Assembly (NCBI GenBank): GCA_964356375.1
Contig: CAYHGT010000004.1
Coordinates: 1 to 57,492 of the forward strand
DNA from: an uncultured Candidatus Saccharibacteria bacterium
GTDB lineage: Bacteria > Patescibacteriota > Minisyncoccia > UBA6257 > GWB1-50-10
Length of the DNA: 57,492 bases
Reading direction: 5' to 3'
The first letter of the stretch is position 1. Every line of letters begins with the position of its first letter. A model generated the notes under the pieces. The model saw only the letters and a list, made by a program, of their open reading frames with translations. It had not been told where the DNA came from and did not search any database. A program made the position numbers and the translations under genes. Of this stretch, positions 46 through 11,125 are shown one piece after another.

Positions 46-147
46 TCCCGTTAGAGGCGAGTTACCGTCGCAAATATTCAGAGATTCTCTTTGCTCATAA
101 CTACACACATTAATACTTGAAACAGCAAACTTAGGTCTCTAACGGGA
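46..147. repeat. Inverted-repeat pair 1: TCCCGTTAGAG (46..56) / CTCTAACGGGA (137..147) bracketing an 80-nt spacer
   Basis: Perfect 11-nt inverted repeat read directly from the sequence. It lies just downstream of the uvrB stop on the minus strand. Confidence 0.8.
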
Positions 148-181
148 TCAATCAGCCACAGTACCAAGGATTAGACGGCTT

Positions 182-2230
182 TTATGCTTTTTTCTTGGTA
201 GGTCGCTCCGCTCTCGCCTTTTTTGCTTCTTTTTCTACGTCTTCAACTTTTTGAGAAAGCACTCTAATTTCTTCGCGCAAAATGGTTGCCAATTCAAAAT
301 TCAATTCTTCGGCTGCCTCACGCATCTCCTTTTCTTTTTCCTTAATTAATATGCTGAGCACCTTCTTTGATTTCGGTAGGGCGCTGAATTCTATATGCTC
401 AATCTTGTCTATCGGCAAAATATCCTTAATTTCTTTTTTGATAGTGGTCGGAGTTATATGATGCTTCTTATTATATTCAAGCTGAATCTTTCTGCGTCTC
501 GCCGTTTCCCGTATCGCGCGCTCCATTGAACCAGTGATATTATCCGCATACATCAATACCTCACCACTTACATTACGCGCCGCGCGCCCGATTGTTTGGA
601 CGAGCGCCGTCTCACTTCTCAAAAACCCCTCCTTGTCGGCATCTAAAATTGCAACCAGCGATACTTCCGGCAGATCCAATCCTTCGCGAAGCAGGTTTAC
701 ACCCACCAACACATCAATCTCTCCTCTTCGTAGTTTCGTGAGAATTTTAATACGGTCAAGCGTTTTCACATCACTATGCAAATAGGTAACTTTTATTTTT
801 CGCTCCTCTAAATATGCCGACAAATCTTCCGCCATTTTCTTGGTAAGCGTGGTTACGAGCACGCGTTCCTTTTCGGCATCGGGTCTATTTACTTGTTTCT
901 CAATACGCGCGATTAAATCCTGTACCTGACCCTTCGCGGGAAGAATGGTTACAACCGGGTCCACAAGACCCGTAGGACGAATAATCTGCTCTACAATCTG
1001 TCCGCCATGCTTTTTTGATTCCTCTATTTCATATTTCCCAGGAGTTGCGGATATGTACACTACCTGCCCAATACGTTTGTTAAATTCTTTAAATGTAAGT
1101 GGTCTATTGTCCGCCGCCGAAGGAAGACGAAATCCGAACTCAATGAGCGTTTTTTTACGCGCCGCATCGCCCGCGGACATTCCCGAAATCTGCGGTACCG
1201 TCACATGCGACTCATCAATAAATGTAATAAAATCCTTCGGGAAATAATCTAAAAGTGTGTCCGATGGCTCTCCTGCGGGACGTCCTGAAAGATGGCGCGA
1301 GTAGTTCTCAATGCCATTGCAATACCCCACCTCGCGTATCATCGCCAAATCAAACTTTGTTCTCCGTTCCAGACGCTCTGCCTCCAAATACTTTCCTGTT
1401 TTTTCAAAATATTTGAGCTGGGCTTTCAGTTCGTCCTGAATCGCGTTAATCGCGCGCTCGCGCTCTGCGGGTAGGGTTATGAAGTGCTTTGCTGGCGCGA
1501 TAAAAATAGCATCGCGCTTCGGTGTCTTCCCAGGAATAAAACCCGCAACTGGGTCAACTTCATAAATGGCCTTGATTTTGCCGTTTTTTAATTCAAAATT
1601 ATAAATAATTTCCCTGTCCGTTGGCATTATCTCCCAGTTATCTCCACGAAGTCGGAATGTGCCACGTGTAAGATCGGAATTCGTACGTGAAAAATGCAAT
1701 TCAACAAGCTTGCGCACAAACGATGCACGTTCAATCGTGTCACCCTTCTTAAAATGAAAAATGTGGTCAGCATAAACCTGTGGGGTACCAAGCCCATAAA
1801 TACAAGAAACAGACGAGACCACAATCACATCGCGACGAGTGAGAAGCGCAGTTGTTGCTGCGTGGCGCAATTTATCAATCTCCTCGTTTATCATCGCTTC
1901 TTTTCCAATATACGTGTCGGAGGTCGGAATATATGCTTCCGGCTGATAGTAGTCGTAATAAGAAACAAAATAATGCACGGAGTTCTCAGGGAACAATTCG
2001 CGCAATTCGTTCGTAAGCTGGGCTGCGAGTGTTTTGTTGTGTGCAATCACGAGCGCGGGACGCTCAATCTTTTGAATGACGTTCGCCATTGTAAACGTTT
2101 TTCCCGAACCCGTAACACCGAGAAGCGTCTCATGAGACACGCCATATTCAATACCCCTTACCAGCGCCTTAATCGCGCTTGGTTGGTCACCCGCCGGTTT
2201 ATTGTTACTGACCAATTTAAAGAGACCCAT
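182..2230 (-). CDS. uvrB: Excinuclease ABC subunit B (UvrB)
   Basis: ORF 182..2263 starts at TTG. The first ATG (2230) gives MGLFKLVSNNKPAGDQPSAI, the canonical UvrB N-terminus. Walker A GVTGSGKT, helicase motifs and a C-terminal UVR coiled coil are present. Confidence 0.95.
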   Translation of the reverse strand: MGLFKLVSNNKPAGDQPSAIKALVRGIEYGVSHETLLGVTGSGKTFTMANVIQKIERPALVIAHNKTLAAQLTNELRELFPENSVHYFVSYYDYYQPEAYIPTSDTYIGKEAMINEEIDKLRHAATTALLTRRDVIVVSSVSCIYGLGTPQVYADHIFHFKKGDTIERASFVRKLVELHFSRTNSDLTRGTFRLRGDNWEIMPTDREIIYNFELKNGKIKAIYEVDPVAGFIPGKTPKRDAIFIAPAKHFITLPAERERAINAIQDELKAQLKYFEKTGKYLEAERLERRTKFDLAMIREVGYCNGIENYSRHLSGRPAGEPSDTLLDYFPKDFITFIDESHVTVPQISGMSAGDAARKKTLIEFGFRLPSAADNRPLTFKEFNKRIGQVVYISATPGKYEIEESKKHGGQIVEQIIRPTGLVDPVVTILPAKGQVQDLIARIEKQVNRPDAEKERVLVTTLTKKMAEDLSAYLEERKIKVTYLHSDVKTLDRIKILTKLRRGEIDVLVGVNLLREGLDLPEVSLVAILDADKEGFLRSETALVQTIGRAARNVSGEVLMYADNITGSMERAIRETARRRKIQLEYNKKHHITPTTIKKEIKDILPIDKIEHIEFSALPKSKKVLSILIKEKEKEMREAAEELNFELATILREEIRVLSQKVEDVEKEAKKARAERPTKKKA

Positions 2231-2278
2231 ATGTGAGAGCTTATCATAAAGAACACTAACCAACTTCGCAAGAATGGC

Positions 2279-2506
2279 TTATTCCGTAATTTCAACAATC
2301 TTCGTCTTTGCCATATGCCACGCAAAAATCTCAACCTCGTAGGGTTTGAGACCACAATGCTTTGCAAGTGCCAGTTCAATGGCTTTATTTGCTTTTCTTT
2401 CTTTTGCGGGCGCTTTTACAAAAACCACTAAATGTGTTTTATCAATTTCTTCTACCTTCTCTACCTTTGTACCCAGCTTGCTATAACAAATACTTTCACG
2501 CTGAAT
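2279..2506 (-). CDS. DUF167 (YggU)-like small protein with no canonical start codon at the expected position
   Basis: Not in the ORF track. The minus frame reads IQRESICYSKLGTKVEKVEEIDKTHLVVFVKAPAKERKANKAIELALAKHCGLKPYEVEIFAWHMAKTKIVEITE*. The VKAP..(G)KAN...L...K.V.I pattern matches DUF167. The open frame begins at an ATT that overlaps the upstream TAA by 1 nt. Confidence 0.4.
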   Translation of the reverse strand: MQRESICYSKLGTKVEKVEEIDKTHLVVFVKAPAKERKANKAIELALAKHCGLKPYEVEIFAWHMAKTKIVEITE

Positions 2507-9694: not shown

Positions 9695-10232
9695 CGCAAC
9701 AATTTACTAATTTTTCAACAATGTCTTCGACTGCCCATGGTTTTTTAGTGCCTCCGGTATCGTGCGCATTTATCTGATCGTCACCAATCTTTTTCACATT
9801 GCTCAAGTCCACAAGTTTTAAGCGAAGTGCCCAAAACATTGAATAAATGTGATATGCCTTATCAAACATATCTTTTGCTTCTTCCTTCTTCCCTTCCCCA
9901 TTAAATTTTGTGCCAACCTCCATAAGACGCATCGTCGCAGCAAGTAAATGTTTTGAAATGCACCAGGTCTCGCCCTCATGAATATCTATCATCCGCTTCA
10001 AAAGTGATTTACGAATCTCGCGTGTCTCCGCAAGTAAATCAAAATATTCATCCTTTTTTGTTTTTTCTGCAGTAAAGAAAAAGTGCTCTTCCAAACTGAC
10101 CAGGTTCATTATCGCGATGGAGAGGTCCTCTTCCATTGAGAGGTCCACCGTCCCACTTTTCTTCATCTCCTCAACCTTCGCAATAAGTTTTTTAATTTTT
10201 TCGTCATTTTCGTTCATATAGATATAGTACAC
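9687..10232 (-). CDS. Hypothetical soluble helical protein with C-terminal CC motif
   Basis: 181-aa ORF that overlaps the downstream gene by 8 nt. Charged and helical, ending in VNCCDE. No family recognised. Confidence 0.5.
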   Translation of the reverse strand: MYYIYMNENDEKIKKLIAKVEEMKKSGTVDLSMEEDLSIAIMNLVSLEEHFFFTAEKTKKDEYFDLLAETREIRKSLLKRMIDIHEGETWCISKHLLAATMRLMEVGTKFNGEGKKEEAKDMFDKAYHIYSMFWALRLKLVDLSNVKKIGDDQINAHDTGGTKKPWAVEDIVEKLVNCCDE

Positions 10233-10244
10233 GAGTGCGGCGTG

Positions 10245-11027
10245 CTAAAGCAAAAAGATAAGTGAACCAAGCACTATCATTGCAAGACCGGTCACAAAAC
10301 GTAGATTTCCCGAGTTGCCACTTCGTAATTCCTGCACTTTTTTGAGCAATGCCTCGTTTGACGCAATTACAAGCACCACCATAAGCGGTACCAAGAAAAG
10401 CAAATTATAAAAGAGCAATAATCCAAGTCCGCCCACAAACGACTTAGAATCATGCAAAAGTCCCAAAATTAAAAGATAGGGACCGCCAACACACGGAAAC
10501 TGCACAAGTCCAACAAATATACCAAGAATAAACGCGGTTACAATTGAACCCTTTTGCATAAGAACCGCAATTGGTCGCTTTGCACTTGCGGGAATTTTTA
10601 GCTGTATCGGAAACTTCGGAAAGTATGCACCAATAAGGTCTATCACGCCAAGTGCAATAATAATGCCTGCCGCAAATTTCCCCATAAAACCGGGGATATT
10701 GAAAAATGTAAGCGCGCGTAATATGCCGAGCCCAATCAATACGTACACAGAAAATATTCCGAAAATATATGTACCTCCTATTATCAATATTTTCTTTCGC
10801 GACTCGCCCATATTAAAAAGAAATGCGACAGTGAGTAGCAACACGGAAAACGCGCACGGATTCAAACTGTCCAAAAGCGCGGTAATTGCAATGAGCGGAA
10901 TGAGCGCTGGCGTACCACCACTCTCCATATTCGTTAAAATACCACTGCCAGTAAATTTCAAAAAAACCATAAACCCAATGAATATAATAACTGCACCAAG
11001 CACCATGCTGAATTTTTTGTTATTCAT
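10245..11027 (-). CDS. CcdA/DsbD-family thiol:disulfide membrane electron transporter-like protein
   Basis: 260 aa and polytopic, with conserved Cys in LDSLNPCAF and FPCVGGPYL. Paralog of 36454..37233. The ATG is directly preceded by ATTTCTAACGGG. Confidence 0.7.
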   Translation of the reverse strand: MNNKKFSMVLGAVIIFIGFMVFLKFTGSGILTNMESGGTPALIPLIAITALLDSLNPCAFSVLLLTVAFLFNMGESRKKILIIGGTYIFGIFSVYVLIGLGILRALTFFNIPGFMGKFAAGIIIALGVIDLIGAYFPKFPIQLKIPASAKRPIAVLMQKGSIVTAFILGIFVGLVQFPCVGGPYLLILGLLHDSKSFVGGLGLLLFYNLLFLVPLMVVLVIASNEALLKKVQELRSGNSGNLRFVTGLAMIVLGSLIFLL

Positions 11028-11125
11028 CCCGTTAGAAATGTAAGTTTAATTTATTTTTGACTGATTTATATTGCAAGAGCTGCGATAAAATATTAGTGTG
11101 TATTCCGCTAAGACTTCTAACGGGA
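11026..11125. repeat. Inverted-repeat pair 3: ATCCCGTTAGAAAT (11026..11039) / TTCTAACGGGA (11115..11125) bracketing about 75 nt
   Basis: 11-nt perfect inverted repeat using the same sequence as pairs 1 and 2. The proximal arm again ends in the AT of the ATG at 11027. Confidence 0.85.
11048..11076 (-). promoter_or_regulatory. Candidate sigma70-type promoter inside IR pair 3 (TTGCAA-17-TAAATT)
   Basis: On the minus strand, TTGCAA is at 11076..11071 and TAAATT at 11053..11048. This leaves roughly 14 nt of leader before ATG 11027. Confidence 0.4.

Follow-up and report, generated by a model that had tools for sequence, protein, structure and literature searches.

The window, a 57,492-nt stretch of an uncultured Candidatus Saccharibacteria genome (697 kb, referred to here as G000), contains three spacers bracketed by one inverted repeat, and the question is what these bracketed spacers are. 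A sequence-only reading had offered four answers: invertible promoter segments, a long-range RNA stem, a promoter-carrying MITE or paired operator sites. All three pairs that it described were located, with TCCCGTTAGA...TCTAACGGGA bracketing 46-147, 2928-3111 and 11027-11125. On the + strand the pairs read TCCCGTTAGA(G/A)... ...(C/T)TCTAACGGGA, and the 10-mer arms lie at 46-55/138-147, 2928-2937/3102-3111 and 11027-11036/11116-11125. The exact 10-mer occurs only six times in the window, always in these pairs, and allowing up to one mismatch gives 8 copies against 2.28 expected, a count reached in 0 of 100 shuffles. The spacers, numbered as elements 1 to 3, and their neighbours are as follows.

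1 to 45: terminal 45 bp of an unrelated multi-copy insertion sequence (IS), a contig-break repeat, adjoining the proximal arm of element 1
46 to 147, minus strand: element 1, 102 bp, non-autonomous, class II; arms 46-58 and 135-147
2506 to 2928, minus strand: host gene downstream of element 2, 140 aa; ATG at 2928 to 2926, its A being the last base of the proximal arm
2928 to 3111, minus strand: element 2, 184 bp, non-autonomous, class I (start-codon target); 13-bp arms 2928-2940 and 3099-3111
3117 to 3608, minus strand: host gene upstream of element 2, DUF5671, 163 aa
10245 to 11027, minus strand: host gene downstream of element 3, 260 aa; ATG at 11027 to 11025, its A being the last base of the arm
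11027 to 11125, minus strand: element 3, 99 bp, non-autonomous, inserted at the ATG of the 260-aa gene; arms 11027-11037 and 11115-11125
11126 to 11133, minus strand: distal flank of element 3, CTGGTCCC (sense strand GGGACCAG)
57439 to 57492: second end of that contig-break IS; GTCAAGCGGG (TTGAC, opposite strand) comes before it

The genome-wide count that had been proposed as a check gave 62 exact copies of the 10-mer in G000, where about 1.3 are expected from length, and convergent arm pairs number about 37-38, spanning 69-202 bp. The "weaker single copies" reported at 27477, 51737 and 52513 carry 1-2 mismatches and have no partner arm, and their number is at chance level.

Comparison with related genomes shows that the spacers are insertions. 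The site of element 2 is empty in five genomes of the same genus (G001, G003, G005, G006 and G007), which have stop-N-ATG (GAGTAAT-ATGAAATATTTT). G000 differs from this empty-site sequence by the element and a duplicated TGA, the two copies of which appear as TCA at 2925-2927 and 3112-3114 of the + strand. Before insertion the stop codon of the DUF5671 gene was 1 nt away from the downstream ATG. Orthologues of the 140-aa gene, which has no Pfam match, have the same MK(Y/R)F... start directly after the upstream stop codon. Element 3 is absent at the orthologous junctions of G007 (87% identical protein) and G003, where the same two genes are 11-20 nt apart, stop to ATG; its downstream 260-aa gene has a weak DsbD_TM match. 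When G000 is compared with G005, an element is common to both at 5-6 gene starts, confined to G000 at 7 and confined to G005 at 10. Two copies of 97 bp in G005 are 100% identical and sit at unrelated gene starts (flank identity 27-31%); elements have been copied recently in this genome, which carries a nuclease copy.

The target is the start codon itself. The earlier observation that the proximal arm is fused to the start codon holds for the 140-aa and 260-aa genes, in which the last A of the arm is the A of ATG. A perfect 4-bp duplication flanks 100 of 142 copies from other genomes; in most copies the duplicated bases are (A)TGRR, the last A of the arm rebuilding ATG, and the target logo is A-T-G-R-R. 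When G000 is included, (A)TGNN accounts for 99 of 112 perfect duplications. The junction in other genomes carries an ATG in 131 of 142 copies (92%) and opens an ORF of at least 60 aa in 122 (86%), while the motif alone would place about 25% at starts (317 start ATGRR versus 931 intergenic sites). Short copies too are found on true start codons, not on any ATGRR.

That no recombinase gene lies in the window is correct, and the enzyme of the family is encoded between the arms in other genomes. Long copies of 277-280 bp in relatives, with the same ends, encode a GIY-YIG nuclease (Pfam GIY-YIG, E 2e-16 to 5e-18). Autonomous copies are found in G012, G026 and G008, and in the same-genus genome G005 (C3:2985-3261, flanks ATGAA|..|TGAA). 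The nuclease is about 94 aa, of UPF0213 type, and is the sole gene of the intact element. The element itself supplies neither a start nor a stop codon for the ORF, which begins at the upstream duplicated host ATG (ATG AA|T CCC GTT AGA, giving M-N-P-V-R), runs through both arms, ends ...CTA ACG GGA|TGA and stops at the downstream duplicated TGA, which overlaps the rebuilt ATG of the host gene (ATGA). This overlap of stop and downstream ATG was present in every context read. Since start and stop are supplied by the duplication, the element would borrow the expression signals of the host gene, and the host gene would remain translatable by coupling.

The element family is found throughout Patescibacteria. 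The nuclease family comprises 2296 protein clusters; among the best 120 of these, 89 have the MNPVR start and 95 the LSLTG end. Close nuclease homologues co-occur with short pairs across 41 relatives (Fisher p = 0.008). Perfect duplications flank 25 of 28 elements in G005, with its intact nuclease copy, and 15 of 37 in G000, which has none; the G000 and G004 assemblies contain many short copies, and no arm-bounded nuclease gene was found in either. When aligned with the autonomous element of G005, the interior of element 2 matches in the sense orientation only (z 3.0 vs -0.7); in alignments of elements 1 and 3, no remaining similarity to the nuclease gene reached significance.

The three spacers are thus very probably decayed, non-autonomous, MITE-like copies of a very small element that inserts at start codons. 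The intact 277-280 bp element, with TCCCGTTAGA/TCTAACGGGA ends, would enter (A)TGRR, which is the start codon with two further bases, and duplicate 4 bp. Internal deletion and decay would have removed the nuclease gene from short copies, elements 2 and 3 among them, leaving the arms, the proximal box (a relic of ...KRFLxLTG) and the position at ATG. We infer that the nuclease cuts the arms when they are paired in a hairpin or cruciform of DNA, and mobilises long and short copies; against this, GIY-YIG enzymes are hydrolytic nucleases and are not known to be strand-transferases.

The proposal of a promoter-carrying MITE therefore stands in its second part, given the terminal inverted repeats, target duplications, empty sites and autonomous partner, but not in its first. 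A consensus scan yielded no sigma-70-like match within either element 2 or element 3, nor did it detect the "promoter-like module" that these spacers were said to share. In element 2 this module falls in the span that aligns, in the sense orientation alone, with the coding sequence of the nuclease, and the shared module resembles a decayed form of that sequence.

Inversion of promoter segments by a site-specific recombinase acting on the repeats has in its favour that the intergenic segments flanked by inverted repeats are short and A/T-rich and lie immediately upstream of genes. However, the proximal box adjoins the gene in 85 copies across genomes and is distal in 6, and this fixed orientation argues against invertons. 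In intact copies the repeats form part of the coding sequence of an ORF, elements 2 and 3 contain no consensus promoter, no invertase lies nearby and inversion does not create target duplications. Assembled public contigs from four runs, which were used rather than raw reads and may miss rare variants, contained only the reference arrangement. The inverton reading is already largely refuted and retains very little probability.

Positions 1-10 of the arms are invariant, and the covariation of positions 11-13 shows that the arms pair. Watson-Crick pairs occupy positions 11, 12 and 13 in 202, 199 and 209 of 223 copies, where 102, 80 and 105 are expected, and an orthologous copy carries the compensatory change CCAG/CTGG. 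Residue 6 and residue -4 of the nuclease covary as base pairing predicts (D-S 79, A-A 10, G-P 2). Judged from these substitution patterns, arm pairing is clearly under selection. Paired operators for a DNA-binding regulator conserved across the group would be consistent with a 10-bp sequence that is unchanged across very distant lineages, but the covariation implies pairing between arms and not protein recognition of each arm; the elements are patchy among congeners, and duplications and empty sites are left unexplained. No support was found for this reading, the least probable of all.

More can be said for the arms as a host RNA device, a long-range stem in a polycistronic transcript kept for regulation rather than mobility, which would bring the upstream stop (or a decoy AUG) beside the real AUG, occlude the AUG or form an RNase III site. 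Besides the covariation and compensatory change, the stem is closed by the A of AUG, few targets have an SD-like motif upstream (20/142) and, as a weak signal, G-U pairs exceed A-C on the sense strand (28 vs 15). Arms also remain intact in orthologous copies with interiors diverged beyond recognition; their perfection in copies that predate the split of two species calls for host-level constraint or repeated replacement. Against this, an RNA device explains neither the 4-bp duplications and empty orthologous sites nor the identical copies at unrelated loci and the nuclease ORF with the same arms, and its patchiness in congeners (0 to 19 pairs) is unlike a core regulatory mechanism. As the primary explanation it is unlikely. 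Selected pairing may nevertheless reflect an added function, and an RNA stem is plausible as a secondary, exapted role of the inserted element; we infer that the stem persists in old copies where host-gene expression has come to depend on it.

Several known systems resemble parts of this arrangement. Correia elements, MITEs of Neisseria, are non-coding, about 100-150 bp, with terminal inverted repeats and a target duplication; their many intergenic copies are often co-transcribed with neighbours, can form long hairpins and show presence/absence at orthologous sites. The present elements share the short length, non-coding nature, terminal repeats, duplication, many intergenic copies and presence/absence. 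They differ in that the autonomous partner is a 277-bp element with a 94-aa GIY-YIG nuclease and not a DDE-type IS, insertion is into the start codon (ATGRR), with ATG rebuilt by the last base of the element, and the terminal repeats are partly coding, with the terminal 10 bp invariant superphylum-wide and the next 3 bp covarying.

The nuclease fold is that of classical homing endonucleases, and the phage T4 seg/mob genes are likewise small, selfish GIY-YIG genes between host genes, translationally coupled and with host-driven expression. Occupied and empty alleles also coexist among relatives, and the copies might on that basis be relics of free-standing homing genes, which would move solely from allele to allele of one locus through double-strand-break repair (intron-less homing). 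To our knowledge homing genes have no target duplications, nor do they have inverted-repeat ends or non-coding derivatives, two hallmarks of transposons. Each occupies one specific locus, whereas a single genome here has copies at dozens of unrelated gene starts. Each copy has its own 4-bp duplication, the last two bases matching the local gene, and identical short copies occur at unrelated loci, making homing very unlikely.

REPINs are likewise hairpin-forming inverted-repeat doublets of about 100 nt in intergenic DNA with conserved structure, and are presumably mobilised in trans by a small nuclease that works on single-stranded DNA in folded form. Their RAYT, an HUH (Y1) enzyme, comes from a single-copy gene lying outside the repeats, whereas the nuclease of this family is encoded between the arms; REPINs, as far as we know, lack target duplications and do not lie on start codons, both of which are features here. 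IS900 and the IS110 family share fixed-orientation insertion at the translation-initiation region. These have DEDD transposases, are not known to carry terminal inverted repeats or duplications and insert between RBS and ATG; the present elements have both repeats and duplications and insert at ATG itself. Integron attC sites (consensus RYYYAAC...GTTRRRY) are also folded imperfect palindromes right after gene ends, with outer GTTAGA/TCTAAC-like boxes and variable interiors, but here the box order is inverted, GTTAGA first and TCTAAC last, copies are dispersed and not arrayed, 4-bp duplications are made and no integrase is involved. GIY-YIG-encoding insertions also occur in the rRNA genes of CPR bacteria (Tsurumaki et al., J Bacteriol 2024, PMC11270868); that paper reports no inverted-repeat ends, duplications or start-codon targeting. 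No literature description of the present family was found, and it is apparently an undescribed element family of ultra-small (CPR/Patescibacteria) bacteria.

Element 1 belongs to a second target class, TTGA at the 5′ edge of a -35 hexamer. Its distal-side TTGA is TCAA at 148-151 on the + strand. In class II copies uninterrupted by the IS (others in G000 and one in G005), the promoter TTGAca-N16-18-TAtaaT comes immediately after the proximal arm; in element 1 the IS separates the two. The ACG noted after this pair at the window edge belongs to the terminal 45 bp of the unrelated IS. The same IS end starts contigs C1, C3, C4 and C8 and ends C15 and C17; the 5-bp duplications deduced from matching contig ends (CCCGC, AAACA and CAGGA) are always directly 5′ of TTGAC. 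The arm end of element 1, CGGGA, has the position of this duplication at other IS copies, and the IS was inserted later at the outer end of the element.

Element 3 has no intact duplication left on its distal side, where the flank and the TCCC of the arm form a GGGAC..GTCCC palindrome. This feature is common to several duplication-less copies in G000 (C3_45150, C3_48992, C3_52071, C9_3254 and C10_17495; flanks cggg/ctgg/cctg), and it may be the remnant of a neighbouring arm.

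The three pairs of inverted repeats reported from the sequence-only reading were recovered at the same coordinates, and on the forward strand every one of the three spacers opens with TCCCGTTAGA and closes with TCTAACGGGA. The arms, an invariant 10-bp core plus 3 covarying bp, bound each of the three window elements, and 223 copies overall, as terminal inverted repeats. The window itself is contig C4 of the genome under study. The features concerned are:

46-147, minus strand, element 1, non-autonomous copy
2928-3111, minus strand, element 2, non-autonomous copy
11027-11125, minus strand, element 3, non-autonomous copy
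1-45 and 57439-57492, ends of an unrelated multi-copy insertion sequence (contig-break IS), with the same ends at nine other contig ends of the genome under study (G000)

At elements 2 and 3 the last A of the proximal arm, which adjoins the downstream gene, is the A of the ATG of a 140-aa gene (2928..2926) and a 260-aa gene (11027..11025), respectively, both on the minus strand, and the claimed fusion of arm and start codon therefore stands. Beside element 1 the arm had been described as running into ACG at the window edge. The ACG is there because the contig-break IS has inserted at the outer end of element 1, after element 1 itself, and window 1-45 is the end of this unrelated IS. The ends of the IS are also found at ends of contigs C1, C3, C6, C7, C8, C15 and C17 of G000; its interior is missing from the assembly, and the IS breaks the contigs. 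In matching contig ends, the deduced 5-bp IS target duplication lies directly 5′ of TTGAC (-35-like) in 5/5 readable cases, and in three the duplicated bases are an arm end (CGGGA/CAGGA).

The window contains only six exact copies of the 10-mer, all in the three pairs. With up to one mismatch there are 8 matches against 2.28 expected, and 0 shuffles reach 8. The weaker single copies listed previously have 1-2 mismatches, lack a partner arm and are within the number expected by chance. Across the 697 kb of G000 (44% G+C, 18 contigs) the motif is strongly enriched, with 62 exact copies against ~1.3 expected, and 38 convergent arm pairs of 69-202 bp are spread over all contigs. An Rfam scan of window 1-12000 (E ≤ 1) returned no match.

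Orthologues of the genes flanking elements 2 and 3 were located in related genomes. Five genomes of the same genus have an empty site in place of element 2, reading ...GA(G/A)TAA-N-ATGA(A/G)(A/G)TA... (stop, 1-2 nt, ATG). G000 reads GAGTAATA[TGA]-184 bp-[TGA]AATATTTT, which is the sequence of the congener G007 plus the element and a duplicated TGA. Element 3 is absent from G007 (protein 87% identical) and from G003, a further congener, where the same two genes are separated by a stop-to-ATG gap of 11-20 nt. A third congener, G005, was taken in full for whole-genome comparison; 5-6 orthologous gene starts have an element in G000 and G005 alike, 7 in G000 only and 10 in G005 only, giving 17 differences in addition to the absence of element 2 from 5 congeners and of element 3 from 2. 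On this comparison of sequences the window elements are insertions. The DUF5671 gene and the downstream 140-aa gene (window 2506-3608) are separate (TAA-N-ATG) in G000 and the five congeners, and in G002, G004 and G010 they are one fused ORF of ~300-330 aa (loci L029-L031 compared).

A scan for the exact arm pair, using one genome per species, found at least 120 stretches, and the matches listed are nearly all from Patescibacteria/CPR. Among these matches are Parcubacteria lineages (Kaiser-, Nomura-, Wolfe-, Jorgensen-, Yanofsky-, Taylor-, Sungi- and Liptonbacteria), Saccharibacteria, Kerfeldbacteria, Levyibacteriota and a few MAGs labelled Omnitrophica, Elusimicrobia and others. G012, a member of the same family as G000, holds a 106-bp arm pair. 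In 100 of the 142 copies from genomes other than G000 the flanks are a perfect 4-bp duplication. An ATG made of the arm's last A and TG lies at exactly one junction in 131 of the 142, and opens an ORF of at least 60 aa in 122. When G000 is included, 99 of 112 perfect duplications are (A)TGNN, and the target logo is A-T-G-R-R. Sequence upstream of the targets is A/T-rich, with an SD-like motif in only 20/142. Perfect duplications flank 25/28 elements in G005 and 15/37 in G000; in the window, element 2 has TGA(A), and at elements 1 and 3 the duplication was lost or never present. A second target class is represented by about ten G000 copies flanked by TTGA, to which element 1 belongs. In all those that the IS has left uninterrupted in G000, and in a single copy of G005, a canonical TTGAca-N16-18-TAtaaT promoter begins right after the proximal arm. 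Insertion occurs at ATGRR or TTGA with a 4-bp duplication, and the host ATG is rebuilt by the last A of the arm.

There are ~317 ATGRR sites at called starts in G000 and ~931 elsewhere in intergenic DNA, so that targeting by motif only, with loss of intragenic insertions, predicts ~25% at starts, against the observed 86-92%. Non-coding copies, too, lie almost exclusively at true start codons, which points to targeting and not to selection for expression. Targeting of leaderless genes or transcription bubbles was considered and set aside, as the TATAAT-like signal upstream is weak and many targets are internal operon genes. Tandem elements that share one duplication (GGGA-TGAA-TCCC) occur, for example, at G000 C1:34600-34742 and C12:2453-2650 and at loci L125, L047 and L044 and indicate that the ATGAA rebuilt beside an existing element was re-used as a target. 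A very G+C-rich 69-bp variant with a TTGA duplication is located at G000 C6:1173-1241; its termini are doubly changed (CCCCGTTAGA...TCTAACGGGG), the changes being compensatory at position 1.

Positions 1-10 of the arm are invariant in the 223 copies. Positions 11, 12 and 13 are Watson-Crick pairs in 202, 199 and 209 of them, compared with 102, 80 and 105 expected when partners are shuffled, and position 14 is usually a mismatch. One orthologous G000/G005 copy has a compensatory change inside the core (CCAG/CTGG versus CCCG/CGGG) together with covarying extensions. The two arms clearly covary, and arm pairing is under selection. On the sense strand, which is A-rich, G-U pairs outnumber A-C pairs by 28 to 15, which is weakly suggestive of pairing in RNA. 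Perfect arms in orthologous copies that predate the species split suggest either a host-level role for the stem or repeated replacement of the copies. The former could, for example, leave the true AUG open to ribosomes that reach the displaced initiation region. One subfamily (e.g. G000 C7:22104-22217 and C9:872-985, L078, L112) has the arm stem extended by GATCGCGATC/GCGATCGC, which is the cyanobacterial HIP1 palindrome octamer.

The elements have a fixed polarity. When oriented by the downstream gene, 85 copies across genomes have the box YCT-NNN-arm on the proximal side and 6 on the distal side. This polarity argues against the invertible promoter segments (invertons) proposed earlier, as do public assembled contigs, which were searched for inversion or excision and show the reference form only. 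An inverton would carry a promoter, and a shared promoter-like module had been described in the spacers of elements 2 and 3; a consensus promoter scan finds nothing inside either. As stated previously, the window contains no recombinase gene. The pattern is real, and is the relic of a mobile element and not an inverton.

Among all arms listed in four near-complete relatives, a class of 277-279 bp is recurrent. These long copies hold an ORF matching Pfam GIY-YIG (E 2e-16 to 5e-18), with 60-65 bits for PF01541 against a cutoff of 22.6, which places the product in the GIY-YIG superfamily. The motif residues are kept in the consensus of 118 proteins (Y.Y...YTG...R..H...E...N), and among solved structures the nearest are 1zg2 and 1ywl, both UPF0213 proteins. 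UPF0213 proteins are related to the structure-specific nuclease Slx1, a lead only. Arm-bounded GIY-YIG copies of 277-280 bp, candidate autonomous partners of the short copies, were detected in G005, in the related genomes G008, G012 and G026, and in metagenomes, and their product is the putative mobilising enzyme. The G005 copy is:

G005 C3:2985-3261, intact copy, reading aaaATGAA/TCCCGTTAGA...TCTAACGGGA/TGAAaaaa

The nuclease ORF of this copy opens with the upstream duplicate of the start codon (ATG AAT CCC GTT AGA, MNPVR), spans both arms and closes CTA ACG GGA TGA, so that its stop is the downstream duplicate and overlaps the ATG of the host gene. Element lengths of 277 and 280 bp each leave a remainder of 1 on division by 3, which an ORF running through the arms requires. 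In a large protein collection the family comprises 2296 clusters at E ≤ 1e-5; among the best 120 of these, 89 begin MNPVR and 95 end LSLTG. Protein length is mostly 93-95 aa; a smaller group of 86 aa starts at an internal ATG. The nuclease stop and the start of the next gene overlap by 4 nt in every genomic context read, and in one context the upstream gene overlaps the nuclease start too. Residues 6 and -4 covary as the pairing of arm positions 11-12 predicts (D-S 79, A-A 10, G-P 2). The ORF is completed by the target duplication and translationally coupled to the host gene.

The short copies retain pieces of this gene. Their proximal box, ..TTCC-T-NNN-TCTAACGGGA, is a relic of ..K-R-F-L-x-L-T-G; the hairpin beside it consists of CGGAAACGTTT (D-L-R-K-R codons) and the complementary AAACGTTTCC (K-R-F-L codons), joined by deletion of the DNA between; and a recurrent AGTCG box matches A-R-S-R-E codons. 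Aligned with the G005 element, the interior of element 2 matches in the sense orientation only (z 3.0 versus -0.7), and the supposed promoter-like module falls within this aligned span. Element 3 aligns weakly (z 1.4), and no alignment of element 1 to the G005 element was obtained. Judged by these matches, the short copies are descendants of the nuclease-encoding element. Promoter scores inside elements do not discriminate between sense (8.45) and antisense (8.24). Coupling through a decoy-ATG upstream ORF holds for intact copies only. It was rejected as a general rule for short copies, where decoy ORFs stop at the proximal-arm TAA in 29/105 and at the junction TGA in 11. Copy lengths divide 66/45/31 mod 3, only a mild enrichment for multiples of 3.

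Copying has been recent where the intact nuclease is present. G005 carries two 100% identical 97-bp copies at unrelated gene starts, with a flank identity of 27-31% and a separate TGAA duplication each, and no identical pair at unrelated loci was found in G000, where 0 of five small GIY-YIG genes is arm-bounded. Among 41 relatives, exact short pairs occur in 8/10 genomes with a close homologue of the arm-bounded nuclease versus 9/31 without (Fisher p = 0.008). These copies, with the terminal inverted repeats, 4-bp duplications, empty sites and same-ended nuclease copy, bear out the earlier suggestion of a MITE.

Other sources of mobility fit less well. No recognised transposase class is represented between the arms, where GIY-YIG is the sole ORF. 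A classical IS with the same ends was sought, and no arm pair 300-6000 bp apart bounds a transposase in 120 loci, G000 and four near-complete relatives. PF01609 DDE transposases are absent from element-rich genomes, and their presence does not track the elements. The contig-break IS has ends unrelated to the arms and is confined to G000 (its end was found in 0/40 relatives), which excludes it as the autonomous partner. A phage vector was also discounted, with only 1 match in a viral contig collection.

Other known systems differ in defined ways. Integron attC sites form cassette arrays, with R″ (RYYYAAC) as the 5′ box and R′ (GTTRRRY) as the 3′ box; here the order is reversed on both strands (GTTAGA 5′, TCTAAC 3′), and copies are dispersed, with duplications. 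A free-standing homing endonuclease gene occupies one specific site, with neither terminal inverted repeats nor a duplication, whereas a genome here has 28-38 different occupied sites, every one with a separate 4-bp duplication. REPIN/RAYT systems combine a single-copy Y1 (RAYT) gene with REP sequences that have a GTAG head, and these arms lack such a head. In full-text literature searches the arm sequence turned up in no relevant context, and no paper described GIY-YIG elements with inverted-repeat ends, duplications or start-codon targeting. In the nearest report, GIY-YIG ORFs are noted in non-intron insertions of CPR rRNA genes, seemingly not spread by homing (PMC11270868), and another lists GIY-YIG genes among those donated by Patescibacteria (PMC12455944). 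The element seems to be a mobile element of a kind not described before, and an unusually economical one.

The putative nuclease would recognise the paired ends as folded DNA and mobilise long and short copies alike. Tentatively, and with slightly more doubt than belief, this may be a new class of prokaryotic transposable element of 277 bp, in which the sole protein is a ~94-aa GIY-YIG nuclease acting on paired (hairpin/cruciform) ends. Its start and stop codons would be borrowed from the 4-bp duplication (ATG...TGA), hence the start-codon targeting across Patescibacteria, and decayed copies would become fixed in the 5′ ends of host genes, with translation then dependent on the stem. If the nuclease does mobilise these copies, prokaryotic transposons would have GIY-YIG as a further catalytic class beside the DDE, DEDD, HUH, serine and tyrosine enzymes, and there would be a new lower size limit for an autonomous element, which at 277 bp would be smaller than any autonomous transposon known to us. 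The target duplication completes the gene, supplying its ATG on the upstream side and, on the downstream side, a TGA over the host ATG; this illustrates how a selfish gene can enter the tight operons of streamlined genomes without silencing them. Start-codon-specific insertion (~90% precision) marks true translation starts in uncultured CPR bacteria at no cost and independently of experiments. The element accounts for part of the very numerous small "GIY-YIG nuclease family proteins" annotated in these genomes (the 2296 clusters), and may also account for the non-intron GIY-YIG insertions in CPR rRNA genes. With their covarying extensions, the invariant 10-bp ends offer a substrate for biochemistry and possibly a compact insertion tool.

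Other GIY-YIG genes and one unusual cargo were observed. UvrB is encoded upstream of element 1 (window 182-2263, minus strand), and a UvrC of ~400 aa, present in every relative as well, explains one PF01541 match per genome in the family search. At locus L008 (1465-1672; contig C36 of genome G013), a 119-bp arm-bounded element has a complete tRNA-Leu(CAG) gene as cargo and interrupts a second tRNA-Leu gene in its anticodon loop. When the element and 1 nt are excised in silico the tRNA call returns, and the outer tRNA is either dead or dependent on removal of the insert from the RNA. A different small GIY-YIG gene (G000 C1:39872-40099, 82 aa), which is not arm-bounded, adjoins a tRNA gene and is flanked by a duplicated tRNA 5′ part (GCCTGAGTGGC...), suggesting that G000 may contain a second, tRNA-targeting GIY-YIG mobile family.
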